Below, piece after piece: positions 78 through 27,059 of a stretch of 27,059 bases of DNA. The stretch lies in IMG/VR virus record IMGVR_UViG_3300022602_000059; one strand, given 5' to 3'. This DNA is from an uncultured virus (IMG/VR IMGVR_UViG_3300022602_000059) (Duplodnaviria; Heunggongvirae; Uroviricota; Caudoviricetes). Positions within the stretch are counted from its first letter, which is position 1; each line of letters starts with the position of its first letter. The notes beneath the pieces were generated by a model. It saw only the letters and a list, made by a program, of their open reading frames with translations. It searched no databases and was not told where the DNA came from. The position numbers and the translations under genes are program-made.

Positions 78-118
78 TAGATATGACTCCTATTTAGATA
101 GTTGGATGGAATTTAGGT

Positions 119-910
119 TTAACCGAACAATCCCGACGATTTGCCTTGAGCCTTATCGCTCAGTAGGCGGCTTCTGTATTTTGCGTATTCGTTCATAGGC
201 ATGGCCGCGATTTCATCGGCCGTGAACTGACGTTGCTCCGAATTAGTTTCCAGTGGTCCAGCGGGTGGCAAGGTTGCCCTTGTCCCTGTCATGTCTCTGC
301 GAGCTGCTGTCATAGCCTGCTGTGCAGATTCAAGAATTTTTGCGGAGCGCTCTTGCAAACCAGCAATGCTGGAGTCGAGCTCTTCGCGGGTATTTCCGCT
401 AACTAGGTCTAACAGTTCTGGGATGATGTTGTCCCGTTCCTGGTCAAGTCGCTGTTGGCGGTAAGCTTGCAAATCAGCAAAAGCTTTTTCTTGTTCCAGA
501 AGAGCGATGGCGCGTTCGCGTTCTTGACGCTCACGCTCCAACTGTTCTTTCCACTCTTGCTCTTTGAGCTTGAGTAGGTCTTTAGCGCTAAGTTCATCTT
601 CTTGCTGCGCCTTAGTCTTAGCTAAGTTCTCAGCTTCTTGTTGAGCCTTGCGTGCGGCCTTCTCTTCTCGTTCCTTCTTGAGCTCTGAGACTTCCGCCTT
701 TAAGCTTTCAAGTTCAGGATAGAGCTTGTTCTTTTCCTGTGCACGGACTTTGGCCAAGTCTTCTTCAGTGTAAAACTTATTTGACTTGGTAGTAGGTGCT
801 TGCTCCGTAGTATTAACAGTAGGTGCGTCAACACCAGTTACGTTTACTACTGGAACGGTATTGGCTTCAGATGCAAACGCATCAGCCATTACTTCTGCTG
901 TTTCTGACAT
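119..910 (-). CDS. capsid scaffolding protein
   Basis: Glu/Lys/Gln-rich coiled coil with 'YTEEDLAKVR' and a short C-terminal helix; lies between portal and capsid; start moved to ATG 910 (TAAGGA SD). Confidence 0.75.
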   Translation of the reverse strand: MSETAEVMADAFASEANTVPVVNVTGVDAPTVNTTEQAPTTKSNKFYTEEDLAKVRAQEKNKLYPELESLKAEVSELKKEREEKAARKAQQEAENLAKTKAQQEDELSAKDLLKLKEQEWKEQLERERQERERAIALLEQEKAFADLQAYRQQRLDQERDNIIPELLDLVSGNTREELDSSIAGLQERSAKILESAQQAMTAARRDMTGTRATLPPAGPLETNSEQRQFTADEIAAMPMNEYAKYRSRLLSDKAQGKSSGLFG

Positions 911-1031
911 AGTTATGTCCTTATCCTCTGGGTCGTTTTCCAAGTAGGCCTAAGCCTGTATCACATATGACCAAACGTTGTTTGTATGTTTAATTTTGCC
1001 CTACGTAGGAAGAAATACAGCCTAAACTGCT

Positions 1032-2753: not shown

Positions 2754-2803
2754 ATCCTCTCAATAAATCTATTTGTCGACATAGTGTAACACAAAGCTAG
2801 TTA

Positions 2804-3112
2804 TTATCTAAAACGCTCGCCGCGGATAAGGTTCTTGCCTACAGGCTTGGTAACCTTCTTCTTCTGGGCTTCCTCTATCTTCTTTTTCTTCTCAGCTACG
2901 TAGTCGCGCATCTTAGGGTCGACGTCTTTTTCAGATTGCACGAACTTGCCGCCTAACTGCGTATAACGGGCGTGAACCCAGTGTGCAGCGGCTGGTGAGG
3001 GGTAGACGCGGAACTTAGAGCGTGCCTGAGTCGTAAGCATGTTCCACAGCTTGGGATTTGCTGGTACTTGCTTTGGAGTTTCCTTAGCTTCTTGCCCTTG
3101 AATTAGTGCCAT
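2804..3112 (-). CDS. hypothetical basic protein
   Basis: 102-aa ORF with GAGGGTG SD, in the head module. Confidence 0.75.
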   Translation of the reverse strand: MALIQGQEAKETPKQVPANPKLWNMLTTQARSKFRVYPSPAAAHWVHARYTQLGGKFVQSEKDVDPKMRDYVAEKKKKIEEAQKKKVTKPVGKNLIRGERFR

Positions 3113-3126
3113 ATCACCCTCGTAGA

Positions 3127-3165
3127 CCTGTACCCCCGCAGGAGGTGGAATGAGCGGGGGTCAGG
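3127..3165 (-). other. GC-rich stem-loop with anti-SD/anti-AUG loop
   Basis: CCTG-ACCCCCGC-[TCATTCCACCTCCT]-GCGGGGGT-A-CAGG; no U-tract. Confidence 0.7.
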
Positions 3166-3178
3166 AGCTTGTTAGTAA

Positions 3179-3577
3179 TTAGTCGTTTACTACTGCTGGG
3201 TTAAGGCGGTACTGGTGTGCACCATTACGCATAACCTCTTCGATGCGGTTATCGCCATGGTCAGCGAATGCACCATTTGAGAACTCCTGAAGTGTGTTAG
3301 GAGCTTCGACCCATGCAGCTGAACCGACGTGAGCACGCTCACGCATTGTCTCTTCTGGGTACTTCTCGAATACGTTAGCGTTGCGGTTTGGACGTCCAGC
3401 GGCTGCAATGTAGCCCTGGCCAGCGCCCTTTGAGAATTCGTTTGGAACGTCTGTATCAGTAGCAAGACCTTCTTCAAAGCGAAGTGGGCCACGTTGTCCT
3501 GGGAGAGCTGGCGACATCTTACGGTCGTAGACGATTGGCGCAGTCTCTGGGAACTTTGGGTCTGGTGCGATTGTCAT
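3179..3577 (-). CDS. hypothetical protein (head module)
   Basis: 132-aa ORF with strong AAGGAG SD. Confidence 0.8.
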   Translation of the reverse strand: MTIAPDPKFPETAPIVYDRKMSPALPGQRGPLRFEEGLATDTDVPNEFSKGAGQGYIAAAGRPNRNANVFEKYPEETMRERAHVGSAAWVEAPNTLQEFSNGAFADHGDNRIEEVMRNGAHQYRLNPAVVND

Positions 3578-3658
3578 ATATGACTCCTTGAAATATGGGT
3601 TTGAGGACCTCAGTTAAAAGTGTGCTACAGAAAGGTCTTGGCGTAAGGCTAAACGCGC

Positions 3659-5242
3659 TTATCTTGAGAAGAAGAGGTTTGAGGTCACCTCTACGTTTGG
3701 CATAGCCAAGTCCATAGTTAGCGCAGTTGCAATAGCCAGCGAGTCCGCAAAGTCGTCGTGGGCATGGGCTTCATCTGGAGCAGCGGCTGAGAAGTTAGGT
3801 CCGTTGAACTTCACCTCTAGGTCAGTCATCTGCTGATAGAAACGCTTCCACGTACGCAGGCGGCGTGTTTTTGCATGGGCAGGCCAACCTACTAAGCGTC
3901 GGTCAATAAGCTGCTTGAGGTGCTTCCAACGCTTGGACTGCTCCTGCTGGGAGCTTCCAACAGAATGAACCTCGGCGCGGGGTAGCAGGATTTTAAGGCG
4001 CTGAGCAACAGCGTCGCCCACACCGTTTGCATCTACACCTACTGCTAGTACGTCGTAGTTGCTGAGGAAGTTAACAATCTGGAAGTACTGGTCTTCCCAG
4101 TCATCGCCTTGGATTTCCAACCAGTTAAGAATACGGTGGTCATATAAGCCGAACTCATCAGGCCTATCCCAGTCAACCCAAACAACGGTGACTACCGTGC
4201 TGTCCATCTTGCGGGCTGGGTCAACACCCACAACCACGGGCGAGCGGTGCCACGCCTTAACAATCTCTTGTGAGGTATCCCCCAGCTCATCCATAATGGT
4301 TGAGGTAACGAACATACCTCTTTCCAACAGCCACTTGCCGCAGTACGACATTTGGAACTCATCAGAGTCTTCACCGATACGTAGCATCTCGCGCTTAATG
4401 AACTTAGCGTAGTTAGGGTTGCACTTGGCAACATCACGCCAATCCCATTCAAAATGGTTCTGTCGTGCGCGGCTACCTGTCTGGCGGCGCTTGTTCAGCT
4501 GGATTGAACGGTAAAAATTATTTTTGCTAGTAGTCGGCGTGCCAGTCTTGACCATTGTTCCAGAATAATAAGCAAGCATAGGACTAATGGATTTGCTAAC
4601 CACAAAATCATCCGCTTCTTGGCACTCATCAATAACAATAAGATGGAAAGACTTAGATTCAATCTTGGCCCTCGGGTTTGCTGTCATCATGGTGAGCGTA
4701 GAGCCAGACTTCTTGAGCTTAATCTGACGTGTGACACCCGCCACTTTACTAATGGAGTCATCAATCTCTGCATCGGCAAGGATTTCGTTAGCCGTCTCAG
4801 ATGTGAGGCGGTTCACAGCTCTGCCGAACAGGGTTTCTACCTGTCCTTCGACAGGGGCAAACATACCAATCCAGATGCCGTCTTTGTACTTTCCCAGTAG
4901 GTCAGGAAATAGTTGGGCTAGGCGTGGTAGGAGAATCATAAGGGTAACAACCGTGTTAGCGATAGTCTCAGACTTACCCGACTGACGGGCTGCTAGGGCT
5001 GTGATTTCTTCGCCGTCATTAATAATAACCGACTCAATAATACGTCGGGCCAGCGGTACTTGATAGGGGTGAAGGTCGTGCCCAACAAACTGGGCCATAA
5101 ACTTCATGATGCGGTCAATGAGGGTCTTGACGAATTCTTTAGAGAGCTCGTCTAGCTCTTCTTCTTCGTCCTGCTCTTCAACGGCGAGGTCGTCCTCATC
5201 CTCGAGGAACTCCTCTTCGTCAATAAATTCTTGTTCGCTCAT
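3659..5242 (-). CDS. terL: terminase large subunit
   Basis: Walker A AARQSGKS, Walker B LIVIDE, GTP coupling motif, RNase H-like nuclease motifs GVDPA and HDDFADSLA. Confidence 0.95.
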   Translation of the reverse strand: MSEQEFIDEEEFLEDEDDLAVEEQDEEEELDELSKEFVKTLIDRIMKFMAQFVGHDLHPYQVPLARRIIESVIINDGEEITALAARQSGKSETIANTVVTLMILLPRLAQLFPDLLGKYKDGIWIGMFAPVEGQVETLFGRAVNRLTSETANEILADAEIDDSISKVAGVTRQIKLKKSGSTLTMMTANPRAKIESKSFHLIVIDECQEADDFVVSKSISPMLAYYSGTMVKTGTPTTSKNNFYRSIQLNKRRQTGSRARQNHFEWDWRDVAKCNPNYAKFIKREMLRIGEDSDEFQMSYCGKWLLERGMFVTSTIMDELGDTSQEIVKAWHRSPVVVGVDPARKMDSTVVTVVWVDWDRPDEFGLYDHRILNWLEIQGDDWEDQYFQIVNFLSNYDVLAVGVDANGVGDAVAQRLKILLPRAEVHSVGSSQQEQSKRWKHLKQLIDRRLVGWPAHAKTRRLRTWKRFYQQMTDLEVKFNGPNFSAAAPDEAHAHDDFADSLAIATALTMDLAMPNVEVTSNLFFSR

Positions 5243-5281
5243 GTTGTCCGATTCAGTAGCTGATTAAAGAAAGTCTAGAGC

Positions 5282-5315
5282 AAACAAAGAAGCCTGGGCT
5301 GTTAAACCCAGGCTC
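5282..5315 (-). terminator. intrinsic terminator
   Basis: AGCCTGGG/CCCAGGCT stem followed by TCTTTGTTT on the minus strand. Confidence 0.7.
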
Positions 5316-5350
5316 TAAGTACCTGATGGGAGAGATGGAAACGAGGTGCT
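5282..5350 (-). ncRNA. candidate ~65-nt small RNA (CU-rich loop plus terminator)
   Basis: TATACT -10 box at 5354-5359, then ACCT-[CGTTTCCATCTCTCCCATC]-AGGT, then the terminator; no ORF. Confidence 0.4.
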
Positions 5351-5391
5351 ATAAGTATAGAGCAAATGTCGACAAATTGCTAATCGGGTAG

Positions 5392-5631
5392 TTAGTATCC
5401 GTTGCGTTGTGCGATAGCTTCGATGACTGCGTGAACGGCCTCTGCGCCAGTGCGTGCCTCTAGAAGAAGTTCAGGGCTACCCGTGCGCTCGTATGCGATA
5501 AGGGTACGGCCTAGTTCGTTGATTGCCTGCTCTCCCCAGCGGGTAAGTTCGGCTGTAGGGATGCGTTGTACACGCTTGGCAATCCTAGGGCTAAAGGGTT
5601 TATCCCAATGCTTGTTGCGCTTAAAGTTCAT
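5392..5631 (-). CDS. hypothetical helical protein
   Basis: 79 aa from ATG 5631 (MNFKRNKHW...), overlapping the end of the upstream gene. Confidence 0.7.
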   Translation of the reverse strand: MNFKRNKHWDKPFSPRIAKRVQRIPTAELTRWGEQAINELGRTLIAYERTGSPELLLEARTGAEAVHAVIEAIAQRNGY

Positions 5632-5932
5632 TAATGACCCAATCGCCTGAATACTCTGCTTGAGGGGATTCCCACCCCTCAATCTCGGAGAGTTCAACTT
5701 GGTGTATATGGGACTTGATGGCATTCGTTAGTGCTTCCTCTTCAGGCAGGGCTTCAGTAAACCAGCCAATCGCATATCCTGGACGGGTAAATGGTACACG
5801 AAAAACTAGGCAGGTTCCCTTGCGGTAGGGCTCTTCAATTTCTTGGCTCCAGCCTTTTTCTACAAAGGGCCAGAAACGGCGATGGCCGTACTTAACTGTT
5901 GTTACGTATAGTGGTCCGATTAATGAGTGCAT
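5621..5932 (-). CDS. hypothetical protein
   Basis: 103-aa ORF tightly packed in the operon. Confidence 0.7.
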   Translation of the reverse strand: MHSLIGPLYVTTVKYGHRRFWPFVEKGWSQEIEEPYRKGTCLVFRVPFTRPGYAIGWFTEALPEEEALTNAIKSHIHQVELSEIEGWESPQAEYSGDWVINEL

Positions 5933-5935
5933 CTG

Positions 5936-6460
5936 TTAGTACACGCCTCCCTGGCCTCTAAGTCGGTAGCGTACGCCCTTACCGCCCAGCTTGGTGCTCT
6001 GCTTACCCTTCAGCGCTTGCTGTTGGCGACGGCTTCGCTCTAGGTTTGCAGTTAGAGCGGCACGGCGACGAGGAGACATAGTGCTCAGGTCTACAGGGCC
6101 CATGTCATAGATGCCTGCGTCAAATCCGTTTTCATGAAGGAACTTGCCCTTGGATGTTGCGCTTTTAAAACCGTTCCACGTCTCTGGGTCTACCCCAGCG
6201 TAGTACCAATAGGTAGTGTCATTAAAAACCACGTACATGGTTTGCTCTTTGGAGTCGTATGCAGCGCGAAGTGTGCGTGGACGAGCAGGATTAGTTGTTG
6301 AGGTTTGGATAAAGTGAAGGTCGCTTGGGAGCTCTTGCCCTACTTGGGATTCTGTTTGCTCAACCGTATCAATGGCCTCGAATTCGCGGTCAATGGCGCT
6401 TTCAACACCCATGCCCCGTTGCAGGGCGGCAGCTTCATCGTTACTAATAAAGTCAGCCAT
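5936..6460 (-). CDS. KTSC domain protein
   Basis: AAYDSKEQTMYVVF...YWYYAGVDPETWNGFKSATSKGKF matches the KTSC pattern; TAATG coupling at 6460. Confidence 0.8.
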   Translation of the reverse strand: MADFISNDEAAALQRGMGVESAIDREFEAIDTVEQTESQVGQELPSDLHFIQTSTTNPARPRTLRAAYDSKEQTMYVVFNDTTYWYYAGVDPETWNGFKSATSKGKFLHENGFDAGIYDMGPVDLSTMSPRRRAALTANLERSRRQQQALKGKQSTKLGGKGVRYRLRGQGGVY

Positions 6461-6723
6461 TATTCCTCGCAAACGTGGTTTTCGGTCTCAGTCTCCAGTA
6501 CTCGCTCGTAGCAGGTTCCACAGCGAAGCCACTTAGGTGGCTTGAAGTTATTCTGAGCAGTTGCTCCAGCTTCAAACTCTAAACCATCAGGGTTGAGGGC
6601 TGGTGCGTAATTGTCTACAATTTCAGGTTCATCAAATAGCTCGGGTGGAAAAGGTCCACGTGGCGAGACGATGCGGTTAGGTATCGGGTGTACCTGTACG
6701 GCGTTATGCCGTGTAAGGCGCAT
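6460..6723 (-). CDS. hypothetical protein with C-terminal CxxC...HxC zinc motif
   Basis: CGTC...HVC; coupled by TAATG overlaps on both sides. Confidence 0.75.
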   Translation of the reverse strand: MRLTRHNAVQVHPIPNRIVSPRGPFPPELFDEPEIVDNYAPALNPDGLEFEAGATAQNNFKPPKWLRCGTCYERVLETETENHVCEE

Positions 6724-6908
6724 TACTCAGCCTTAGGTTCTGAAGCCTTTGGTTTTGCTGGTGCAGCTTTTTCTGGAAGGCGAAGTTGCCCTGCATCGGC
6801 TCGCTTCTGCAAGTGCTTAGGAAGACAGATGGCGCAATAGTAGACAGGGTTGGCGCCTGGGTTATTGAGGTAGTAGACAGCTTCACGGCTGCAGTTAGCA
6901 CACTTCAT
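6723..6908 (-). CDS. small zinc-finger protein
   Basis: CANC...CAICLPKH; AAGGAG SD; TGCTATACT extended -10 upstream. Confidence 0.75.
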   Translation of the reverse strand: MKCANCSREAVYYLNNPGANPVYYCAICLPKHLQKRADAGQLRLPEKAAPAKPKASEPKAE

Positions 6909-6941
6909 TTAGTACTCCTTGGTTTGAATGTTCAGTATAGC

Positions 6942-6968
6942 AAAAAAGGGGGCCGAAGCCCCCTTCTT
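6942..6968 (-). terminator. intrinsic terminator ending the lysis operon
   Basis: AAGGGGGC-TTCG-GCCCCCTTTTTT: C(UUCG)G tetraloop plus U6. Confidence 0.9.
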
Positions 6969-6979
6969 CACTTAATGAC

Positions 6980-7279
6980 TTACTTAGCTGCGTCTACAGC
7001 TGCCTTAGCAACAGCCTTCTGAGCGTCCGCTACTGCTGCGGTAGCAACAGAGGTCAACGCTGAGGTTGTTACTGAATCAAGATGCTCCTGCTTAGCAAGG
7101 TCTGTTACAACACCCTTAGGGTTGAACTTAGCCAACAATGGACCAACAACGCCAACTACTGCCGCCCAAAGGACGTGCTTGATGTGGTGGTTGCCTGTCT
7201 GCCAGATTGCTACAGCTGATGCTGCGGTTGCGTAAACATAGTGCTCAACAAGAGCCTTTTCTGAACGTGTGATTTTCAT
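6980..7279 (-). CDS. probable holin
   Basis: 99 aa, two hydrophobic segments followed by 'GPLLAKFNPK'; last gene of the endolysin operon. Confidence 0.65.
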   Translation of the reverse strand: MKITRSEKALVEHYVYATAASAVAIWQTGNHHIKHVLWAAVVGVVGPLLAKFNPKGVVTDLAKQEHLDSVTTSALTSVATAAVADAQKAVAKAAVDAAK

Positions 7280-7282
7280 GTC

Positions 7283-7516
7283 TTACTGCTCGCTTTCGAT
7301 GTTGTTAGCGTACGGGGTCACAATATGTGACTCTGACTCTACGTCGGGTCGTGACGTAGGGTTATGCGGTACGGCTCCCCCTGTTAGGGCAGCTAATGCT
7401 ACCTCTGTTAGATGGCTGGGGTCAACTGAGAAATTGCTAGCTTTCCATGCGGCGAGTCCCGCTACGCCAGCTAGACCTACGGCCTTAGGGTCGCTTACGG
7501 GGAACTTGAATGGCAC
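7283..7516 (-). CDS. small membrane protein (possible second holin-like)
   Basis: 77 aa with two short hydrophobic stretches, within the lysis operon. Confidence 0.55.
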   Translation of the reverse strand: MPFKFPVSDPKAVGLAGVAGLAAWKASNFSVDPSHLTEVALAALTGGAVPHNPTSRPDVESESHIVTPYANNIESEQ

Positions 7517-7817
7517 TGTGCACCTCTTTGATTAGATGAAGGGCCTCTTCGACACGCTTGTGGGTTTGCCCATCAAGGTTGAGGTCCTTTTCAATTATAG
7601 CCCTGTCTTCGTCGCCTGAACGGTTAGTAGCGTTCAATAACAAGCCAGATAGGAGGATAGACTCCAATGAGACGATAAGGGTAAGAAGGTTAAATGGATA
7701 CGGGTCAAAAACGGCAAAGGTCATCCACGCAGTCCAAAAGACCATGTGGAAGATAAGGAACCACGGTGAGCCAAAAGCTGTTGCGGCCCAGTCCGACATT
7801 CTTTGAAAATACTTCAT
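7485..7817 (-). CDS. DUF1003-family membrane protein
   Basis: FGSPWFLIFH...FDPYPFNLLTLIVSLE...NR...DR signature. Confidence 0.85.
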   Translation of the reverse strand: MKYFQRMSDWAATAFGSPWFLIFHMVFWTAWMTFAVFDPYPFNLLTLIVSLESILLSGLLLNATNRSGDEDRAIIEKDLNLDGQTHKRVEEALHLIKEVHSAIQVPRKRP

Positions 7818-8683
7818 TAAGCTCCTGCTTCCTTAATCATTGAGGCATAGGTAGCGGCGTCTAATCCCTTAGAGGATTTGAGCGCTGGGAATTTTTTCTG
7901 GTAAACGGGTACCAACGCCAAGTCCTCTGTAGTTAGTGTCCCTTTGACTAGATTGCTTGGGAGCAGCCCAGCCTTTTCTAAAGCTGTCTCTACTATCAAC
8001 GCCGCCTGAGTCTTGAGCCCAGCCTTAAACGCTGAGGTGCCAGGGAACGGCGGTGCAACTAATACTGTGGTTGTTTTAACTGTAGTCGCTGTAGTGGTGT
8101 GAGTTGCAATCGCCGCTCCCCCACCGCCAAGAGCTGTTACGGCGGCTACACCAGTCGCTAATGGCTTGCTGTTAGCGGTCTTGGAGATAGCGGGTTTTGA
8201 GCCCTCTTCGTACGCTGGGCGAACAATTGCAAGGACAAAAAGGTATGGGCGATGGCGTAGATAAACACCATGACCATCAGCCTGTGGAGAGTTAGCTGTG
8301 TAGTGGTCAGGAGTGGTGTTGCCACCAATTGTTGTGATGCCATCTTTAGAGGCGGCTACTACTAGCTCAACATGGTCAGGAATAGAGTTTCCAGAAAAGC
8401 TGTAAAAGACTATATCTCCAGGAAGTGCGGAGTACTTATCCACAACCTGCTTGTTCTTCTGGAACCAGGTCAGCCCAGCTGGGCAGTAAGAGAAGCCTTT
8501 AGGTGTTTGAGCAGCTACAAGATGAGAAGCGTTAGCCTGTGCAAAGCACCATGAGATGAACATGGCACACCACGGCTCGTTAGAAATGCCGTACCAGTCG
8601 CCGTAAGGGTTCTTGTCGGTAGCTCCGCCATAGAAGTTAACTTGCTTCTGTGCAATGTTGATGATGTCTACGCCAGCTGTCAT
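7817..8683 (-). CDS. endolysin with CHAP amidase/peptidase domain and putative C-terminal wall-binding region
   Basis: PWCAMFISWCF (Cys), PGDIVFY, DHVELV (His), TIGGNT; Thr/Ala-rich linker; PPFPG-containing C-terminus. Confidence 0.88.
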   Translation of the reverse strand: MTAGVDIINIAQKQVNFYGGATDKNPYGDWYGISNEPWCAMFISWCFAQANASHLVAAQTPKGFSYCPAGLTWFQKNKQVVDKYSALPGDIVFYSFSGNSIPDHVELVVAASKDGITTIGGNTTPDHYTANSPQADGHGVYLRHRPYLFVLAIVRPAYEEGSKPAISKTANSKPLATGVAAVTALGGGGAAIATHTTTATTVKTTTVLVAPPFPGTSAFKAGLKTQAALIVETALEKAGLLPSNLVKGTLTTEDLALVPVYQKKFPALKSSKGLDAATYASMIKEAGA

Positions 8684-9126
8684 TTGTCTAGCTCCTTATT
8701 CGTTACTACTTCAGCAGCAGCCGCTGTTCCTACCTTTCTGTAACGAAAGGTTTCCCACAGGGGCGCTGGGATTTCATGGATGCCGTAGCGTGTACGGTGA
8801 TGTGCTTCGCAGAGCACTTCTAGGTTTCCTGGGCTTTCAATCCAAGCTTGGAACTCATCGTCGTTAGCAAAGTGAACGCCAAAGGCCTCTTCCACTCTTG
8901 CTGGGTCCATGTTGTTTACCTGAGAAAACTCAATGTGGCTGTGGTGAAGCTCTGGGCCTCCTGAGCAGAAGTCGTCGTTGATGATGCACTTCCACAGACC
9001 AGCCGCCTTGATGCGAGCCTTTGCCTGATTGAATAGGTGGTAGTGAGGGTCAGATTCCCGTGGCTCGTGGGCAGGTACGGAGACAGCGAGGTGAAGGTTC
9101 AGTGCATTCTTGTGAGCTTCGGTCAC
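8680..9126 (-). CDS. HNH-like protein
   Basis: C...C...ELHH...GNLEVLCEAHH...GIH; GTG start overlaps the upstream TGA (GTGA). Confidence 0.65.
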   Translation of the reverse strand: MTEAHKNALNLHLAVSVPAHEPRESDPHYHLFNQAKARIKAAGLWKCIINDDFCSGGPELHHSHIEFSQVNNMDPARVEEAFGVHFANDDEFQAWIESPGNLEVLCEAHHRTRYGIHEIPAPLWETFRYRKVGTAAAAEVVTNKELDK

Positions 9127-9605
9127 TGGTAGATTAACCTTTCCGCTAAGTCTCCTGGGGTTACAAGATTGTCTGGCTTGTTTACCAATCCAATACCTGC
9201 CCTGTCGTAGGTGAGGGCAACTAGCTCTGAGCATATGACCCCATAACGCATAGCGGCACGCTCCATCAAGGATGTGTTCGCCAATACCTTGAGCCCCAAG
9301 ATACGAAGAGCTAGGACAAAGATGTCAAAAAAGCCGTAGGGACGACCAACAAGATTGACCGCAGCCTCTACGATGGTTTCACGCTGCTTGGTGGTCAGCT
9401 TTTCGTGCTGGTTCCATGCAATCAGCGGGTACTTAGAGACTGGACTGATAGCTACTCCAGTAGGGTTGGCTTCTACAATCAGGTGCTCATCGATGCAGAT
9501 GAAGGCGTGGTTCCAGCGGCTCATCGTGCCTAAGCGGATGAGCTTGCCAAAGAAGCCTGTAGTCTTGACGACGCCGTAATCGCCTGGGCGTGGAGTGTAT
9601 GTCAT
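9123..9605 (-). CDS. permuted papain-like NlpC/P60 enzyme (YiiX/YaeF type)
   Basis: PGD...SRWNHAFI (His first)...VGRPY...ICSELVA (Cys last)...VTPGDL. Confidence 0.85.
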   Translation of the reverse strand: MTYTPRPGDYGVVKTTGFFGKLIRLGTMSRWNHAFICIDEHLIVEANPTGVAISPVSKYPLIAWNQHEKLTTKQRETIVEAAVNLVGRPYGFFDIFVLALRILGLKVLANTSLMERAAMRYGVICSELVALTYDRAGIGLVNKPDNLVTPGDLAERLIYQ

Positions 9606-9877
9606 TTGTTCTCTTCTACGTATTGGTCAAAGCGACCTTCTAGACGAGCGTAGTCAACTTTGATATCCGTGATGTCTTGGCGCAAGTCATCTTGCGTAGC
9701 ATCTAACTTCTGAAGGATAGGAAGGACTTGCAGCTTAACGATGTCACTCAATGAGCTGCCGTGATTAGGACGAAGCTCTGCTAAGTAATGTTTGATGACC
9801 CAGCGACCAGAACCAATAAGTGCGCCAAGTACTACGACGCCAGATGCCGATGCTGCAAGAAGATTAGATGTAGACAT
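9602..9877 (-). CDS. membrane-anchored coiled-coil protein (lysis-associated)
   Basis: N-terminal TM segment, ELRPNHGSSL motif, C-terminal coiled coil. Confidence 0.7.
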   Translation of the reverse strand: MSTSNLLAASASGVVVLGALIGSGRWVIKHYLAELRPNHGSSLSDIVKLQVLPILQKLDATQDDLRQDITDIKVDYARLEGRFDQYVEENK

Positions 9878-9895
9878 TGATGACCTATCTGGGAT

Positions 9896-9916
9896 TGTGG
9901 ATATCGCTGTGGATAA
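9896..9916 (-). promoter_or_regulatory. tandem DnaA-box-like sites
   Basis: TTATCCACA (9908-9916, perfect) and ATATCCACA (9896-9904, 8/9), 3 bp apart, intergenic, next to AT-rich DNA. Confidence 0.5.
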
Positions 9917-10048
9917 CTACTAATTGTCCAAATATAAGAGCCCAGAAGGTGCAATACATGTAATTTTTACACATATTGGTGTACTTTTCTCTGTAAACAC
10001 CGCTGTTGAACTTGACACGCTCTGTAACTCTAGTGTTCCATAGAGTAT

Positions 10049-10075
10049 GAGGGAGTCAGCAATGACTCTCTTTCG
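10049..10075 (+). promoter_or_regulatory. 5' leader hairpin with GCAA tetraloop
   Basis: GAGGGAGTCA-GCAA-TGACTCTCTT followed by a U-rich tract. Confidence 0.6.
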
Positions 10076-10097
10076 TGTTCTACTGAGAGGAGCAGAA

Positions 10098-10613
10098 ATG
10101 CTTAATATCAGAATTAACCTAACGGTAAATGTTCGTAAGTTGACCGCAGTACTAGGAGCTATGTGTTTCGTATGGAGTCAACTGTTGACCCCAGCACATG
10201 CTCTGCCTGTACTTGCACCTCAAGAGAGGGCTGTAACAGTCGCTCTTCAGTACTTGAATGTATCTACGACCAAGTCCGCAGCGCAGAAAGCGCTCGCTAG
10301 CCCCTACGTCAAGTACTTTGACCCCGAGACCATTGCATTCCTCACGGAGTACGCCAATGGCCAATCGATGAAGGAGTGGAAGTGCCTCGACCAGCTATGG
10401 TCCGCGGAGAGCCACTTCAACCCTAAGGCCCTGAACATGAGCTCCAAGGCTTTTGGCCTAGCTCAGTTCCTGCCTACTACATGGACCAATTACAAAATCA
10501 AGAAGACCAGTGTGGCTGTAGTCCAAGTTCAATATGGTCTTCACTACATCAAGGTTCGTTACGGTACAGCTTGTAATGCCTGGGCTTTTCATCAAAAGAA
10601 TGGATGGTATTGA
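10098..10613 (+). CDS. secreted lytic transglycosylase (SLT/lysozyme-like, actinobacterial type)
   Basis: Signal-like N-terminus; EWKCLDQLWSAESHFNPKA (catalytic Glu), AFGLAQF, GLHYIKVRYGTACNAWAFHQKNGWY; GAGAGGAG SD before ATG 10098. Confidence 0.88.
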   Translation: MLNIRINLTVNVRKLTAVLGAMCFVWSQLLTPAHALPVLAPQERAVTVALQYLNVSTTKSAAQKALASPYVKYFDPETIAFLTEYANGQSMKEWKCLDQLWSAESHFNPKALNMSSKAFGLAQFLPTTWTNYKIKKTSVAVVQVQYGLHYIKVRYGTACNAWAFHQKNGWY

Positions 10614-10623
10614 CCTAGAAAGC

Positions 10624-10656
10624 AAAAAGCCCCAGCCGATTGGCTGGGGCTTTTTT
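10624..10656. terminator. bidirectional intrinsic terminator
   Basis: AAAAAGCCCCAGCC-GATT-GGCTGGGGCTTTTTT between convergent genes. Confidence 0.92.
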
Positions 10657-10665
10657 GTTCTCTGA

Positions 10666-12069
10666 TTAGAGAGTATAGGTATAGGTACCAGCTGCAACTC
10701 CTGGGTTTTCACCAGTAGGCAACTTGTAAACAACCAAGTTAACCGCAGTTCCCAAGGTCTGGCTTCCTGTTACAGACTGGCTGTAAACAGTTCCAACGTT
10801 GAGTGCTGTTGCACCTGAGGTTGTGTAGGTAACAGTTCCTACGTTCAATGAAGCTACGCCAATCTGACGGATAGCTTCCTTGATGGTCAAGCCAGTAACA
10901 GTTGGAGTAGAAGTTGTTGAAGCAGATGCTGCAACAGTCACTACTGCAAGGCCACGAATAGCACCTGAGACGGTGCTGCTAAGAGAGGCAGCGGTGCCAT
11001 CTACAGTAGAGTTGGTTACTGTGAACTGTGTTGGGGTCGCAGATGCAATCGTAACAGAGCTGAGGTTGTACGCTGATGCCGTTGTGTAGGTAGGGGCGTA
11101 GATAGCGGTTGCGATTGGCTGGTTTGAGCCAGCAAGTACGTAGTTGTACAGACCTGAGATTGATACAGTCTGGCCAGTAGAGAAGTTGTTATGTGCTGTG
11201 TAGGTTACGGTTGTGCCGTCTCCTGAAGCAGCGGTAACTACAGCTGACAAGGTGTAGGCAGGGTTGAAGCCTGTGGTCTTGTTTGCCGCGTTTAGAGGGA
11301 ATGCCTCGTATCCGTTAAGGATATTTACGGTGTTGTCATTAGGGACAGTGTAGGAACCAGCCTGGCCAACAGTGACTGTTGGTTGGGTTTCGGTGAGGAC
11401 GTTTGACGTAAAGTCAGTGGTTGTTCCCCAACCGTAGTCTGCGCCAATACCGTCAAGAAGCTCAGCGTAAGCCTCGGCAAGACCTGAAGCGCCTGAAACA
11501 GCGCGGTCAGTTGTTGCGTTGGTGATGGTGAATGCTGAGGTGGTTGCAGATGCAACAGCGCCTGTGAGGTTGAAAGCAGATGCGTAAGCACCAGTAGCTG
11601 TTGAGGTAGAGCCTGTAGCAGCTGATGTTACGGTGAAGTTTGTGTTAGTTACAACAGCCAAGATGGTCTTGGTGCCGTTAAATCCTGCAGCTGAAGCGCC
11701 TGAGATAACGATGGTCTGTCCTGCTGAAAGACCAACTGTTGAAGATGTTGCGTAAGTCACAACACCAGCAGATGCAGTAATGCCTGTGATAGCAACTGAG
11801 CCTAGGAGACCAGAAACGGTTACGCTCTGACCAGCAACGAACTCGTTAGCTGCGGTGTAAGTGATTGTGCCAGCTGAAGCTGAAGCAGCGGTTACTGTTG
11901 CAGAGATAAGGTCTCCACCAAAAGTACCTGAGGTTCCGCCTGTGGCGTTGTATGAAATTGATGAACCTGAACGGTCATCGTTTGTCTGTGGAGGCAAGTT
12001 GCCCCAGACGAAGTCTACAGCAACGTTGCCCGAAGGAGCTTGCTTGTAGCCAGAGTCTCTTACTGTCAT
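10666..12069 (-). CDS. Ser/Thr/Ala-rich putative virion protein with three internal beta repeats and C-terminal PASTA-like domain
   Basis: Repeats TYT..N.F..GQ.V.VSGL x3; C-terminus PTVTGLTIKEA...LNVG...GTVYSQS...GTAVNLVV. Confidence 0.65.
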   Translation of the reverse strand: MTVRDSGYKQAPSGNVAVDFVWGNLPPQTNDDRSGSSISYNATGGTSGTFGGDLISATVTAASASAGTITYTAANEFVAGQSVTVSGLLGSVAITGITASAGVVTYATSSTVGLSAGQTIVISGASAAGFNGTKTILAVVTNTNFTVTSAATGSTSTATGAYASAFNLTGAVASATTSAFTITNATTDRAVSGASGLAEAYAELLDGIGADYGWGTTTDFTSNVLTETQPTVTVGQAGSYTVPNDNTVNILNGYEAFPLNAANKTTGFNPAYTLSAVVTAASGDGTTVTYTAHNNFSTGQTVSISGLYNYVLAGSNQPIATAIYAPTYTTASAYNLSSVTIASATPTQFTVTNSTVDGTAASLSSTVSGAIRGLAVVTVAASASTTSTPTVTGLTIKEAIRQIGVASLNVGTVTYTTSGATALNVGTVYSQSVTGSQTLGTAVNLVVYKLPTGENPGVAAGTYTYTL

Positions 12070-12199
12070 TGTTTTCCTCTCGCGAAGGGATTGAAGGGGG
12101 GTAGACGAAGCCCCCTAGGGAGCGAGACGAAGTAGTAGACCTATTGAGTCAATTCTAAGGCCCTAGGTGTTCCCTAGAGCCTCAAAGTCGTCGCGGTAG

Positions 12200-12916
12200 T
12201 TAGGCGTTTTCCCCAGATTGAGCGCGAGCAAATGCGTCCCAGTACATGTTGTAGTACTTAGCGTTCAAGTCAAATCGCTTGACGTGGGTAGCAATTGCGC
12301 CAGTATGAGCGTAGACAGGAATGCCTGCGGCCTTGACCTTGCGGAAGAAGACTATGTCCTCGCTCACGTACTCATCGCCCTTGCCCTCTTTCTCGCCAAA
12401 GAAGGAGTCATTAGGGAACTTGTCACGAAGCTTCTCGACTACTGAACGGTGCATAAGTACAAGCCCCATGCCAGCGCTGTCAATCTCAATAAGCTCGTTA
12501 TTAGGTAGCGGGTGGACGTGCTGCATCTGATACTCAGAGCGGTCGTGGAAAAGGGCTGGAAGGGGGTAATCCAGCGTTCCCTCAGTCTGCTTGGAGATGA
12601 AGTAGACTCCAGAGACAATAGGCCGTATAACGGGGTTTGCGGCTTCCCAGAGGGTCTTGAGGATTTCGGCGGTTAGGCAGATATCGCTATCCACCCAGAG
12701 GAGCCAATCGCTCGTATTAGCGTCGTACCAACCGTCGATAAGGACTTGGCGCTGGCGGCCAATCTGATTACCCTGAACGCGCACAGCTTGCTTAACGCTA
12801 AAGCCCGCAACCTCAGGTAGGCGTAGGATGGTGTAGACCAAGCCCTGTGTAAACTTGCCGTCTGTAGTGCCGCCATCGCACCAGCCGATAGTGAGTGAGT
12901 CCTTTTTAGATGCCAT
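12200..12916 (-). CDS. GT-A fold glycosyltransferase (family 2-like)
   Basis: WLLWVDSDI (DxD), AGMGLVLMHRSV, SEDIVFF and a C-terminal His. Confidence 0.85.
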   Translation of the reverse strand: MASKKDSLTIGWCDGGTTDGKFTQGLVYTILRLPEVAGFSVKQAVRVQGNQIGRQRQVLIDGWYDANTSDWLLWVDSDICLTAEILKTLWEAANPVIRPIVSGVYFISKQTEGTLDYPLPALFHDRSEYQMQHVHPLPNNELIEIDSAGMGLVLMHRSVVEKLRDKFPNDSFFGEKEGKGDEYVSEDIVFFRKVKAAGIPVYAHTGAIATHVKRFDLNAKYYNMYWDAFARAQSGENA

Positions 12917-13635
12917 TACTTGTAGTCCTTTGGTTGACGGAATTTGTTCTTATATGAGTCAAAGAATGATGTACGCAAGCGCGTAGTAGTCTTTACTTGG
13001 CGCTTGTACTCTTCTTCAGAGCCGAGTTCCATCTTCCATGATTCGCGTTTAAAAGGAATGACCTGTGCCATTGGTGTACCCGCGGGTATAAGTCCTTCAA
13101 AAGACCAATCATTCAAAACAAATGGAAAGTTTACTGGAGCGTTATACTCATCAGTGTCCACAATGCCATCAAGGATGGTAAACATAGATGGTCGGTGCAT
13201 AGGCTGAGTAAAAAGTACTGAGTAGCCTTTGGGAGTTTGGATAGCCCAAGGGTTAATCCACTTAGGATAGGAGCCACCATCTACAAGATTGTTACGGTTA
13301 GGGTGCGTCGGCGCTTGTGTTACTGGGTGAAAGCCAAGAGGACCAAAGGAAGGCCACTCATACCAAGGAACAACCTTGCCTTCGTTACTTGGGTCAGGCT
13401 TTTGCGACACCCACACATCGGCATAAGTATAAAGAATGTAGCCACCAGTAATAGCATCAAAGACTGGCATACAGCGCTTAATAGTGCCTGTGGTGTGTCC
13501 GTCACCAGTGGGTTTCTTTTCTCCGCCCATGTACGACTCTAAGTTCTTGTACCAATCAGGTACAGAAGCAGATGCGGGTTTTGGTCGAAATTCCTCTGGA
13601 ACACCCATAGTGTCCGTAAAGGTAATGATTGCCAT
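12916..13635 (-). CDS. DUF6065-like protein, paralog 1
   Basis: TIKRCMPVFDAITGGY...KWINPW.IQTPKGYS...GIVDTD...GTPMAQVIPFKRESW. Confidence 0.7.
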   Translation of the reverse strand: MAIITFTDTMGVPEEFRPKPASASVPDWYKNLESYMGGEKKPTGDGHTTGTIKRCMPVFDAITGGYILYTYADVWVSQKPDPSNEGKVVPWYEWPSFGPLGFHPVTQAPTHPNRNNLVDGGSYPKWINPWAIQTPKGYSVLFTQPMHRPSMFTILDGIVDTDEYNAPVNFPFVLNDWSFEGLIPAGTPMAQVIPFKRESWKMELGSEEEYKRQVKTTTRLRTSFFDSYKNKFRQPKDYK

Positions 13636-13695
13636 TTGGTAGTCCTTTGGTTAGGTGGTTGGAAGTTTACACCTATAAGTGCTAGTATCACAACT

Positions 13696-24298: not shown

Positions 24299-24736
24299 CT
24301 AGCGGATGAGGAAGCCTACTCCTGCGGTGATAATCATGCCGAGGAAGCCGCCAAGGACTACACGGGCTATGTGGTGGGATTTGTTATCTAGGTCACGTCC
24401 GCTGAGGATGCCAGCGATAAAGAGGCCGAGTAATGTGACAGCTACTATAGAGAGGTTCTTGGAGGGAAGCAGGGCTCCGAGCAGGGGAATAAGACCACCT
24501 ACGGCATAGGAGAGGGATGAGGCTATAGCTGCTTGGATGGAGTCCTTACGGCTACCTTCTGCTCGTACGGATACGTATTCTCCCACCCCCATGGACATCG
24601 CTCCAGCGACTATGCCTGCGGTGGTGATGGTAATGAGATTACCGATATGGGTAGCTGCTACTCCGAGCATAAGTGCGGAGATAGATACTAAGCCGTCATT
24701 AGAACCAAGGATTGCAGCGCGAAGCCATTGTCTCAT
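24299..24736 (-). CDS. VIT1/CCC1-family Fe/Mn transporter, minimal form
   Basis: LRAAILGSNDGLVS, AGAMSMGVGEYVSV, AAIASSLSY..GGLIPLL; five hydrophobic segments. Confidence 0.85.
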   Translation of the reverse strand: MRQWLRAAILGSNDGLVSISALMLGVAATHIGNLITITTAGIVAGAMSMGVGEYVSVRAEGSRKDSIQAAIASSLSYAVGGLIPLLGALLPSKNLSIVAVTLLGLFIAGILSGRDLDNKSHHIARVVLGGFLGMIITAGVGFLIR

Positions 24737-24916: not shown

Positions 24917-24940
24917 GTTCAAGATAAGTATATATCTTTG

Positions 24941-25014
24941 TGCACCAAGTAGGAGTCGAACCTACAACACCTAGTTCCTAAGACTAGCGCCTCTACCAGT
25001 TGGGCTATTAGTGC
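24941..25014 (-). tRNA. tRNA-Leu(TAG), short variable loop, no encoded CCA
   Basis: GCACTAA/TTGGTGC acceptor stem, CTAGT-CTTAGGA-ACTAG anticodon arm, GTAGG-TTCGACT-CCTAC T arm, A73. Confidence 0.92.
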
Positions 25015-25015
25015 G

Positions 25016-25092
25016 TGGTTGCGGGAGTGGGATTTGAACCCACGACCTAGAGCTTATGAGGCTCCCGAGCTTCCGAGCTGCTCTATCCCGCG
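25016..25092 (-). tRNA. tRNA-Met(CAT), initiator-like acceptor stem, CCA encoded
   Basis: CGCGGGA/TCCCGCA with C1:A72 mismatch, A11-U24, GGAGC-CTCATAA-GCTCT anticodon arm, TTCAAAT T loop. Confidence 0.95.
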
Positions 25093-25154
25093 ATAAGTGA
25101 CCTCCCTGGTGCGCTTTGAGTAGAGGCGTGGGAGGTGCTGTTAGATAAGAATAG

Positions 25155-25186
25155 CACAAAGCCCCCCATTGCTGGAGGGCTCTGTG
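25155..25186 (-). terminator. terminator-like hairpin downstream of hsp20
   Basis: 14-bp stem with GCAA loop; two G-U pairs form only on the minus strand; overlaps TGCTATTCT extended -10 of the tRNA unit. Confidence 0.75.
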
Positions 25187-25210
25187 TGACAGGTAGCGAA
25201 TCCGTCAGTT
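25155..25210 (-). ncRNA. candidate small RNA or hsp20 3'UTR element with TTCGCTA loop
   Basis: TGACGG-[ATTCGCTAC]-CTGTCA hairpin (25187-25207) stacked on the terminator; TAAGAT possible -10 at 25213-25218. Confidence 0.45.
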
Positions 25211-25215
25211 ATATC

Positions 25216-25767
25216 TTACTTGATTTTGATAGTTTTGGGCTTTAGCTCCTCAGGTACTTCGCGCTCTAGCCGCACGGTCAAGATGCCATCTTTCATCTCG
25301 GCACCCTCGACTGTCACGTACTCAGCTAGTGGGAAGCTCTGCTTAAAGCCTCTAGCAGCGATTCCCTTGTGGAAGTACTCATCCTCGGACTCTTCGCCCT
25401 TCTTGCCTTCAATAGTCAGTACTTGCTCCTTGAAGGTAACCTCTACCTCATCCTTAGAGAAACCTGCTAATGCAAGCCGAATGAGATACTTGTCCTCTCC
25501 ATCCGAGAGAATGTCATAAGGTGGATAAGTAGCTCGAGCCCCGATTTGGTTCTGAAGCTCTTCGAAGAAAAGTTGGTGATTAGTAAAGCCAACCCCACGA
25601 GCTGTTAAGTTATTAACTAGCCGTGTAATGACCTCTGCAGGAGTGAGAGGTGCTGTCTTGGGATACCCACTGCCATGCTCTTTGTAGGGTTCCTTATATG
25701 GGTTCTTGTAGGGCAGTTCCTTATCGAACTGGTCCTTGTTAGGAAAAGAGTTGCTGAATGTAGCCAT
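25216..25767 (-). CDS. small heat shock protein Hsp20 (IbpA-like)
   Basis: YPPYDI, LALAGF, YFHKGIAARGFKQSF.LAE, DGIL, C-terminal I-x-I. Confidence 0.95.
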   Translation of the reverse strand: MATFSNSFPNKDQFDKELPYKNPYKEPYKEHGSGYPKTAPLTPAEVITRLVNNLTARGVGFTNHQLFFEELQNQIGARATYPPYDILSDGEDKYLIRLALAGFSKDEVEVTFKEQVLTIEGKKGEESEDEYFHKGIAARGFKQSFPLAEYVTVEGAEMKDGILTVRLEREVPEELKPKTIKIK

Positions 25768-25826
25768 AATTATCTCCTTAGACGATAACTGTTAAGCGGC
25801 CCTTATGGCACCGCAAGTGAAGTATA
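25768..25826 (-). promoter_or_regulatory. hsp20 promoter and SD-sequestering two-hairpin leader
   Basis: TGATATACT extended -10; hairpin 25796-25814; AGTTATC(G)TC-TAAG-GAGATAATT pairs over the AAGGAG SD. Confidence 0.65.
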
Positions 25827-25930
25827 TCACACACCGCAAAACCTACAAATTGGCTACTGTGTAGTTTTGCCCGACTTTAAATCCTATTTTAGTATTTAGC
25901 CCCTCCCCCAGAGCCAAAGCCCCATCACCC

Positions 25931-26060
25931 CTCTCAGGCAATTCCCAGAAAAGGCTACTGCCTGCCATGGGGGAGTGATACCTGTGGGTAATACCTGCAC
26001 CCCTGCTTTTCCTGAGAGTTTGCTTAACCGTGGGGGGGTCATTCCTGAGAGCTACCTGAG
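25931..26060. repeat. CCTGAGAG repeats in the non-coding strand-switch region
   Basis: TTCCTGAGAG at 26009-26018 and 26042-26051; inverted CTCTCAGG at 25931-25938; partial CCTGAG at 26055. Confidence 0.6.
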
Positions 26061-26091
26061 CACGAGCTGAGGGGCGGTTGTCGGTGGCTGG

Positions 26092-26145
26092 TGGTAGTGT
26101 TTTACCTGTCACCAAGTCGGTGGCAACCTAGCGAAAGGCAAGACA
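26092..26145 (+). promoter_or_regulatory. early-type promoter and leader: hairpin plus AACCTAGCGAAAGG motif
   Basis: TGGTAGTGT extended -10; GTCACC-AAGTC-GGTGGC hairpin; motif at 26125-26138. Confidence 0.65.
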
Positions 26146-26379
26146 ATGCTTACACGCAAACATTACCGCGACATCGCAGAAGCTATTCTGCAGACCCGCA
26201 TCCACGAGCGCACAATGGGCGCTTCGGAGGAGGACATGGTCATCATCAACCTAGCTCTCGACGCGCTGACCGACCGTCTGGCGGTCAAGTTCTGCCAAGA
26301 CAACCCACGATTCGATTACGGCAAGTTTATGACCGCCTGCCGTGGTTCGGTGGCTATGCGGACGGCGGTGGGAGCATGA
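26146..26379 (+). CDS. phage hypothetical protein (TRKHY...DNPRFD...F..AC type)
   Basis: GAAAGG SD; recurrent small phage protein pattern. Confidence 0.8.
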   Translation: MLTRKHYRDIAEAILQTRIHERTMGASEEDMVIINLALDALTDRLAVKFCQDNPRFDYGKFMTACRGSVAMRTAVGA

Positions 26380-26618
26380 CCACAGCCTTCACCCACGACG
26401 AGGTCGCGCTTCTGCGCTCCTCTGTCTCACAGACTGCTAACAGCCTAGTTTCTGACCTGTCGGACATGATTGGCTTCGACCCCAATGGAGCCAGCGAGCA
26501 CGCTATCGCTCAATGGACAAACCGCAAGACTTACCTCTGGAAGGAGATTCAGAAGCTCACCGACCTAGAGCGCAAGATAAAAGCCCTTCAGGTAGAGGTA
26601 GAGGAGGCAAAAGCATGA
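26376..26618 (+). CDS. 80-aa coiled-coil hypothetical protein
   Basis: MTTAFTHDEV...; ATGA overlap, so the real start lies inside the 175-aa track ORF. Confidence 0.7.
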   Translation: MTTAFTHDEVALLRSSVSQTANSLVSDLSDMIGFDPNGASEHAIAQWTNRKTYLWKEIQKLTDLERKIKALQVEVEEAKA

Positions 26619-26764
26619 CTCATCGTTGGGATTACGAGAGCGTAGGAGATTTCTTCTGCACTCGCTGTGAAGAGGACAAGGAAGATGTCAAGAACCTAGT
26701 CCAAGCAGAGGTGTTCACTTACATCTGCCCTGACTGTGGCAACCAAGAGGATGTGCCTCGGTAG
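26615..26764 (+). CDS. 49-aa zinc ribbon protein
   Basis: CTRC...CPDCG; GAGGAGG SD. Confidence 0.7.
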   Translation: MTHRWDYESVGDFFCTRCEEDKEDVKNLVQAEVFTYICPDCGNQEDVPR

Positions 26765-26769
26765 ATGCG

Positions 26770-26842
26770 TATGGCGGAGAGGGTTCGCTCTCTCCGCTGT
26801 GCGGGTCGCCCGACCCAAACAAACCTAGCGAAAGGTATAGAC
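26770..26842 (+). promoter_or_regulatory. two hairpins plus second AACCTAGCGAAAGG leader motif
   Basis: ATGGCGGAGAGGG-TTCG-CTCTCTCCGCTGT; GGGTC-GCCC-GACCC; motif at 26822-26835. Confidence 0.65.
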
Positions 26843-26941
26843 ATGAACAATAACAAGTGCGTCTCATGTGGCAAGGTAACGAGCTCATGGACAACCGATG
26901 ACGGCGAGTATTACTATCCACAATGTGGGGAGTGCCAATGA
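26843..26941 (+). CDS. 32-aa zinc-binding peptide
   Basis: CVSC...CGEC; GAAAGGT SD. Confidence 0.65.
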   Translation: MNNNKCVSCGKVTSSWTTDDGEYYYPQCGECQ

Positions 26942-27059
26942 ACGGCGTCGGCGTAAGCGCAAACTGCGTGTTCGTAGAACATAGCTCATGCAATGGGCTA
27001 TGGGGAGGCGATACATGGTCACCATGCGCCTGTGCCTGTCACCAAGAGGAGGAAGAATG
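26938..27059 (+). CDS. ~40-aa Cys/His-rich peptide (reaches window edge)
   Basis: C-x4-H-x2-C...CACACH; ATGA overlap. Confidence 0.6.
   Translation, partial: MNGVGVSANCVFVEHSSCNGLWGGDTWSPCACACHQEEEE

Follow-up and report, generated by a model that had tools for sequence, protein, structure and literature searches.

Complementarity between two 3′-end hairpin loops and the repeated leaders of one operon in an uncultured lake myovirus: a possible RNA-based control element

In the plasmid antisense systems CopA/CopT and RNA I/RNA II, the kissing-loop RNAs are transcribed off the two strands of a single locus, with full complementarity between them, and in phage T4 the RegA/RegB proteins shut off early mRNAs at the start regions of many genes. 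Contacts made by mRNA 3′ ends are also described in three reports: a 7-nt motif in the 3′ untranslated region (UTR) of icaR mRNA in Staphylococcus aureus pairs with the same mRNA's Shine–Dalgarno (SD) region and hinders initiation (PMC3868564), a 5′/3′-UTR interaction in the hbs mRNA of B. subtilis governs nuclease access and mainly stability (PMC5737220), and CisR, a small RNA (sRNA) derived from the prtV 3′ UTR, acts on a CTX-phi mRNA (PMC13250501). How phage RNAs exert control after transcription has received little study, and phage sRNAs are called 'mostly yet to be explored' in a further paper (PMC11512511). Here we describe a 27,059-nt stretch of DNA (the window; IMG/VR record IMGVR_UViG_3300022602_000059), a fragment of an uncultured tailed lake phage, in which the loop of a hairpin after the hsp20 gene is complementary to a leader repeated before two genes of the opposite strand. 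An earlier note, made from the sequence alone, had proposed that a ~55-nt antisense RNA carrying this loop, or the hsp20 3′ UTR, could switch translation of a whole class of early genes.

The exact 14-mer AACCTAGCGAAAGG that the earlier note had picked out is indeed present twice on the + strand, at 26125-26138 and 26822-26835, each copy ending 7 nt 5′ of an ATG (26146 and 26843) and consisting of the SD GAAAGG plus the 8 nt upstream of it. Allowing up to 2 mismatches brings out no third copy in the window, and two or more matches arose in 0 of 100 shuffles. On the minus strand, a hairpin that we call H1 (25187-25207; UGACGG / loop AUUCGCUAC / CUGUCA) begins 8 nt past the hsp20 stop, and its loop contains the 7-mer UUCGCUA (the complement of + strand 25194-25200), which is, as had been claimed, the exact complement of UAGCGAA in both leaders. 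In four close relatives, a second hairpin with the same 7-mer in its loop ends the operon that carries both leaders. These observations are best explained by reading the 14-mer as a duplicated translation-initiation cassette that heads the two halves of one + strand operon, and H1 as one of two copies of a clade-specific 3′-end module. That the 3′-end loop also pairs functionally with the SD flank of both leaders, with a cis action for the operon and a trans action for hsp20, is suggested by the complementarity and the predicted folds, and we put it at somewhat less than an even chance.

On its minus strand the window carries portal, large terminase, endolysin and tail-fibre genes as well as hsp20, and on its + strand small genes from 26146 onward. 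One related sequence (G001) is identical to the window over positions 1-12718 and contributes 4.9 kb more, with no overlap with the leader and hsp20 locus. A 59,131-nt IMG/VR record (G002, which appears among our numbered loci as both L119 and L125) was picked up through its copy of the 14-mer; its overlap with the window starts at about 26394, with 85-90% identity, and it then continues for a further 58 kb. Its gene content (tail sheath, baseplate, DNA polymerase, helicases, primase and ribonucleotide reductase) shows the phage to be a myovirus, with a genome of roughly 95 kb. The region of interest is also present in three loci from metagenomes (L126, L127 and L128), which are 96-97.5% identical to the window across it and run 1-1.9 kb past the window end. 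For searches we used a composite of the window and G002 (85.5 kb). GenBank phages gave tRNA-level matches only, with none of 73 matching records having a place that covered at least 80% of the query. The 14-mer itself was found in 113 IMG/VR stretches, with a single match in each of the 80 of these that were listed, and only G002 among them was related to the window (BLAST, 120 loci).

Both copies of the leader (AACCUAGCGAAAGG) follow GC-rich hairpins, in agreement with the earlier note. Directly 5′ of leader 1 (26125-26138), the fold of 26091-26160 contains UGUCACC-AAGUC-GGUGGCA (26107-26125), and between gene 3 and leader 2 (26822-26835) lie two hairpins of 15 bp (26769-26802) and 5 bp (26803-26816), a region with a predicted fold of -37.2 kcal/mol (z -4.91). 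Relative to the three close relatives, in which leader 1 is kept, the sequence contains four variable positions in 26092-26104 and no substitutions from 26105 onward, with zero variation over 26105-26156. Leader 2 is identical in these relatives and in G002, and the intergenic block that holds it is near-invariant in five genomes while the flanking genes diverge. Leader 1 precedes gene 1 (26146-26379, +; 77 aa), the first gene of the operon, which has no Pfam or PHROG match and no relatives in the viral_contigs search. Its ATG at 26146 is the real start: substitutions in 26146-26345 against L126-L128 fall mostly at third codon positions of the gene 1 frame and not of an overlapping 175-codon open reading frame (ORF). 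Leader 2 precedes gene 4 (26843-26941, +), which encodes 32 aa with two CxxC pairs as read from the sequence. In L126 and L127, a deletion of ~59 nt (aligned to window 26860-26940) fuses this CxxC gene in frame to the next gene and leaves the upstream intergenic block intact. The + strand genes are small, lack family matches and lie beside a divergent control region.

The 3′ end of hsp20 (module A) is strongly structured, with a predicted fold of -32.7 kcal/mol (z -6.37) over 79 nt. Folding bears out the display of AUUCGCUAC by H1 (-5.5 kcal/mol, z -2.47; 5 of 200 shuffles as stable) and its abutment on a long GC-rich hairpin of 14 bp (H2, 25155-25186, -), which directly follows H1, is itself followed by CUAUUCUUAU and was flagged by a terminator scan. 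H2 is terminator-like, with a U run that is short and interrupted (tail CUUUGUGCUAUUCUUAU), whereas the canonical terminators of this phage have U7 tails. H1 is identical in L126-L128; H2 is a real structure, the apical part of which differs in sequence between these loci and the window and still forms 14 pairs in both. G-U pairs had been taken to fix the strand of H1 as minus. That argument is weak, since the + strand also folds (-5.0 kcal/mol), and better evidence for the minus strand comes from the orientation of the adjacent hairpin and from the second copy in relatives. A third hairpin (H3, 25100-25135, -), predicted in a 126-nt fold, lies between H2 and a tRNA-Met gene, 7 nt upstream of the latter.

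The second copy (module B) is found in G002 and L126-L128 at the end of the operon carrying both leaders, just beyond the window end. Its hairpin (17730-17746 of L125, that is G002, minus strand) reads UAG-A-UUUCC-UUCGCUA-GGAAA and starts 1 nt past the last stop of the operon; we infer that leaders and module B lie on one transcript. The short hairpin is followed 1 nt later by a long GC hairpin and then by CUAUUCCUAU, without a U-tail; the plan is that of module A, with its H1, H2 and CUAUUCUUAU. Common to both modules are the loop 7-mer UUCGCUA, the adjoining long hairpin and the tail CUAUUCYUAU, and the short stems are unrelated (UGACGG/CUGUCA versus UUUCC/GGAAA). The long stem of module B, read by eye, keeps its pairing through changes from U.G to C-G and from G.U to A-U. 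We surveyed folds of the 95 nt after each of the 148 called genes of the composite and looked at the best 32 of 148 by stability; among these, only modules A and B pair a short hairpin with an abutting long one, and both lack U7. That the same 7 nt are kept in the loops of two hairpins whose stems are unrelated speaks for selection acting on the loop.

A constant loop on variable stems is also the usual mark of a hairpin recognised by a protein. UUCGCUA could accordingly be a protein or nuclease site at two 3′ ends, used, for example, in processing of an hsp20–tRNA precursor or in mRNA stabilisation, or else a 7-bp site in double-stranded DNA, with the complement in the leaders being incidental. 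The lack in H2 of the U7 tail of canonical terminators, which implies that the modules may not be terminators, fits this reading, as does the fact that H1, H2 and H3 occupy the spacer that leads up to a pair of tRNA genes. We nevertheless find it unlikely: an RNA-binding protein would not read a loop and its complement alike, a DNA site could do without inverted repeats of varying sequence on either side, and no candidate protein emerged, the small neighbouring genes being without a family in profile scans.

A functional pairing of loop and leader would draw on accessible bases, the predicted cost of opening the 7-mer being 0.09 kcal/mol in module A, 2.4 kcal/mol in module B and 1.7 kcal/mol in each leader. 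Between module B and the leaders the complementarity extends to 9 nt (UUCGCUAGG : CCUAGCGAA), and when the module's loop and closing pairs were compared with 317 candidate start regions of the composite, the two leaders ranked first and second (-16.5 and -16.3 kcal/mol), with other start regions within 0.5 kcal/mol of them. The composite holds TAGCGAA/TTCGCTA at 10 sites, four of them non-coding; all four lie within 2.7 kb, in an orientation that tracks 5′ versus 3′ position. With 9.5% of the composite non-coding, our own arithmetic gives a P of about 0.01 for four of 10 sites being non-coding (the automatic coding split placed both leaders inside over-long ORFs, and only its coding fraction was used). 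One more 7-mer site occurs in the extra 4.9 kb of G001, without a hairpin context.

Several observations weigh against a functional pairing. The 7-bp duplex is weak (-7.5 kcal/mol), and loop A does not single out the leaders, which reach -8.9 kcal/mol and are equalled or bettered by six others of the 317 start regions. TAGCGAA is not enriched in the window (3 versus 2.95 expected). In the minimum free energy (MFE) fold of module B only UCGCU is exposed in the loop. The hairpin of module B may have arisen simply by inverted copying of the one in the leader, and its complementarity could then stem from descent. This genome habitually repeats 14-mers exactly in its start regions: AACCAAAGGACTAC occurs at 12922-12935 and 13639-13652, before the minus-strand ATGs of two adjacent genes at 12916 and 13635, and AAGTAATGGCTAAA (21655 and 21960) spans two start codons. 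The elements are invariant wherever present (H1 in 4/4, leader 1 in 4/4, leader 2 in 5/5 and module B in 4/4), which leaves no changes in which loop and leader could covary; as whole intergenic blocks are conserved, this invariance is uninformative on the 7-mer specifically. Finally, five short, low-depth contigs from RNA libraries (four lake metatranscriptome runs) cover only 25317-25467 and 26175-26525 (hsp20 and genes 1-2), with none over 25093-25215, and such contigs carry no end or strand information.

Much of this would follow if a start cassette had simply been copied and the 3′ hairpins were ordinary stabilising or processing structures, the 7-nt match being coincidence or shared descent without function, perhaps going back to an early duplication, in inverted orientation, of a CCU...AGG hairpin. 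The chance-level 7-mer count and the weak, non-unique duplex suit such an account, the SD itself makes up 6 of the 14 nt, and exact start-region repeats extend to G002, where GAAAGGGAAAGCA precedes two starts. Overall, the window contains 12 repeated exact 14-mers versus 1.46 in shuffles, so the leader repeat is notable for its position and not for its existence. Module B starts exactly where gene content splits between G002 and L126-L128, so that these intergenic blocks serve as conserved linkers in a mosaic, kept whole across changing gene content. Against mere coincidence stand the same 7-nt loop on unrelated stems, the finding that the only two such modules among the best 32 of 148 gene ends both carry the 7-mer, and the clustering and orientation of the four non-coding copies. 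On balance we consider coincidence or shared descent doubtful, and chance and a protein-bound loop, summed, about as likely as functional pairing. As a separate observation, the leader at 26125 and 26822 reads as AACC + UAGCG + AAAGG, that is, as AACCAAAGGACTAC with five added bases.

The strictest form of the earlier proposal, in which a ~55-nt RNA with its own promoter (25155-25210, -) switches a whole class of early genes by loop–loop kissing, now looks highly improbable. It draws on the accessible loop and on the exact 7-nt complementarity to two leaders. The possible -10 TAAGAT found no support: a scan, which covers sigma-70-like promoters only, gave no such minus-strand site near 25208-25240, TAAGAT included. 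Nor does the leader mark a class of early genes. Across ~90 kb of sequence from this type of phage, only two genes, both in one operon, are headed by the 14-mer; G002 (59 kb) has a single exact copy, which is orthologous to leader 2, along with three further matches at 3 mismatches in unrelated contexts. Kissing between two loops had also been envisaged, with each leader folding as (A)CCT-AGCGAA-AGG(T). Leader 2 is indeed predicted to form this weak hairpin (ACCU-AGCGAA-AGGU, 4 bp, -3.2 kcal/mol) and the H1 loop is exposed, but leader 1 lies outside any such predicted loop, its GCG pairing with a downstream CGC in the MFE fold, and kissing is therefore doubtful for leader 1. What survives of the proposed link is the accessible complementarity, joined now by a second UUCGCUA hairpin at the end of the leaders' own operon, and not the broad target class or the separate RNA.

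A different signal is shared more widely by the + strand units. Arrays of three CTGAG words at exactly 11-nt spacing (for example TTCCTGAGAGCTACCTGAGCACGAGCTGAGG) number six between 26045 and 31014 of the composite, all of them on the + strand, intergenic and ahead of + strand transcription units. One array lies upstream of leader 1 (26045-26071), and the others lie at about 1534, 1598, 2790, 4405 and 4653 of G002 (reverse complement). These arrays are probably a promoter or an activator-binding or regulator module of the + strand units of this clade. The other units with such arrays use leaders unlike the 14-mer, which tells further against a class-wide switch; the two starts in G002 preceded by GAAAGGGAAAGCA, for example, belong to + strand units with the CTGAG signature. 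The motif ACCTGT(C/A)ACCAAG was also seen ahead of + strand starts, at 26104-26116 and 27035-27046 of the window and at 1664-1676 of G002 (reverse complement). At two sites it may fall roughly where a transcript would start downstream of a CTGAG array. On the minus strand, its first nine bases also supply H1's 3′ arm (25186-25194).

Beyond the close relatives the elements disappear together. In hsp20 relatives at ~70% amino-acid identity, a terminator directly follows the stop codon, the 12-mer leader core is present in 0 of 5 loci, and H1 was not present in the loci compared of this other hsp20 lineage. H1, the 14-mer and the CTGAG arrays are all missing from relatives found through an early protein (55-66% identity, 19 loci) or through a shared intergenic block (15 loci). 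In phages that have a related hsp20 or early region but not the 14-mer, H1 is absent too. Leader and H1 co-occur in one narrow clade, which means that their association amounts to a single evolutionary event. The shared block itself, seen in 15 IMG/VR contigs of the wider family (L159-L173) and at 1455-1495 of G002 (reverse complement), consists of a small hairpin followed by GGGGAGGGTGGGYCAACMCAAACATT and sits just downstream of terminators.

If the loops do act on the leaders, the UUCGCUA loop would pair with UAGCGAA and cover the 5′ half of the SD, so that initiation would be damped or the mRNA exposed to a double-strand RNase. Module B, at the 3′ end of the operon itself, would act either in cis or from one molecule to another, and module A in trans, through the hsp20–tRNA transcript or a processed 3′ fragment of it. 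Sequences, predicted folds, accessibility and within-clade conservation are the observations from which we infer RNAs that exist in this form, pair as drawn and affect translation. The full picture, in which a lytic lake myovirus uses both the operon 3′ hairpin and the hsp20–tRNA 3′ hairpin to present UUCGCUA to the UAGCGAA flank of the SDs of its first + strand operon, is offered tentatively and is more doubtful than the pairing as such.

Several other ideas were tried and set aside. A TTCGCT in the loop of the 26769-26802 hairpin that might act in cis is changed to TTCGCC or TTCG-C in L126 and L127, and an outer helix closing H1 and H2 is disfavoured by a 3′ strand that differs in L126-L128. 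Three further candidates came from known systems: a T-loop fails on its fifth loop base, which is C and not A; a boxB/nut-like site fails because leaders and 3′ modules carry complementary, not identical, loops; and a promoter for a phage RNA polymerase fails because no such polymerase was found among the 36 window and 35 G002 proteins scanned.

The surroundings of module A comprise hsp20 itself (25216-25767, -; 183 aa), assigned by PHROG phrog_432 (Hsp20, E 1.2e-37) and Pfam HSP20 (63.4 bits, cut-off 20.8), and two downstream tRNA genes called by ARAGORN and Rfam, tRNA-Met(CAT) at 25016-25092 and tRNA-Leu(TAG) at 24940-25014, both on the minus strand. These two tRNAs (59.5 and 59.4 bits) alone reached the gathering threshold in a scan against Rfam 15, with no match for H1, H2 or the leaders. 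H3 scored 31.1 bits over the full model length of the abiF RNA (RF03085), below its gathering score of 37, and the resemblance may reflect a pre-tRNA leader structure or a chance match. Upstream of hsp20 (25768-25850, -), inspection by eye picks out a sigma-70-like promoter, in which 16 nt separate TTGTAG from TGATATACT and the -10 is of the extended kind, followed by a hairpin and the SD AAGGAG; the promoter scan instead listed a weaker site at 25795-25766. Adjoining the tRNAs, an unusual auxiliary gene (24299-24736, -) encodes a 145-aa protein matching VIT1, the vacuolar iron transporter (97.1 bits). Intergenic DnaA-box-like words (TGTGGATAA / TTATCCACA) occur at about 2745-2790 of G002 (L125, reverse complement), as a perfect 14-bp inverted repeat after a gene end, and in the lineage of another locus (L140; 3410-3450, 4100-4130 and 4855-4890), as direct repeats before each unit.

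Were the pairing real, the operon mRNA would be closed end to end, and a stress or late transcript would cross-repress the same two cistrons. Such a circuit would join 5′/3′ pairing with a 3′-UTR regulator in a phage, a variant of known RNA control and a compact RNA-only device in phage gene timing. A pre-terminator hairpin loop complementary to leaders would then be a searchable signature for other phage genomes. If the match is a coincidence, the locus is still a useful case for caution, since this genome often repeats leaders exactly and a match of 7 nt proves little.

Compared with the systems described at the outset, the locus combines features of several. The idea of the earlier note, a common signal at early start regions that would allow joint shut-off, resembles T4 RegA/RegB, but only two targets are present here and the candidate regulator is an RNA. 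Like CopA/CopT and RNA I/RNA II, the candidate pairing would use loop recognition over 6-7 nt, starting with a YUNR-like UUCG (we take the UUCG of the H1 loop to fit the YUNR pattern of antisense recognition loops), and the complementarity of module B to the hairpin of the leader takes in both stem and loop, over 11 nt with one bulge, as in kissing-loop pairs. Unlike in the plasmid systems, the partners sit at separate loci, match over 7-9 nt and include one target that is not in a loop. With 3′-UTR-derived sRNAs such as CisR the modules share an accessible seed beside a terminal hairpin at an mRNA 3′ end, complementary to a start region; they differ in that their terminal hairpin is without the kind of U-tail that Hfq-dependent sRNAs typically have, and in that the seed lies in a loop. 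The end-to-end pairing within one mRNA recalls hbs, except that in our case it is predicted and could bear on stability or on translation. Comparison with icaR offers further points of contrast and of likeness. In the phage, the motif lies in a hairpin loop 1-8 nt past a stop codon and not in a long 3′ UTR, spans no more of the SD than its 5′ half and is found at two separate 3′ ends. As in icaR, module B belongs to the same operon as the leaders, presumably on one transcript with them, and is complementary over 9 nt to their SD region.

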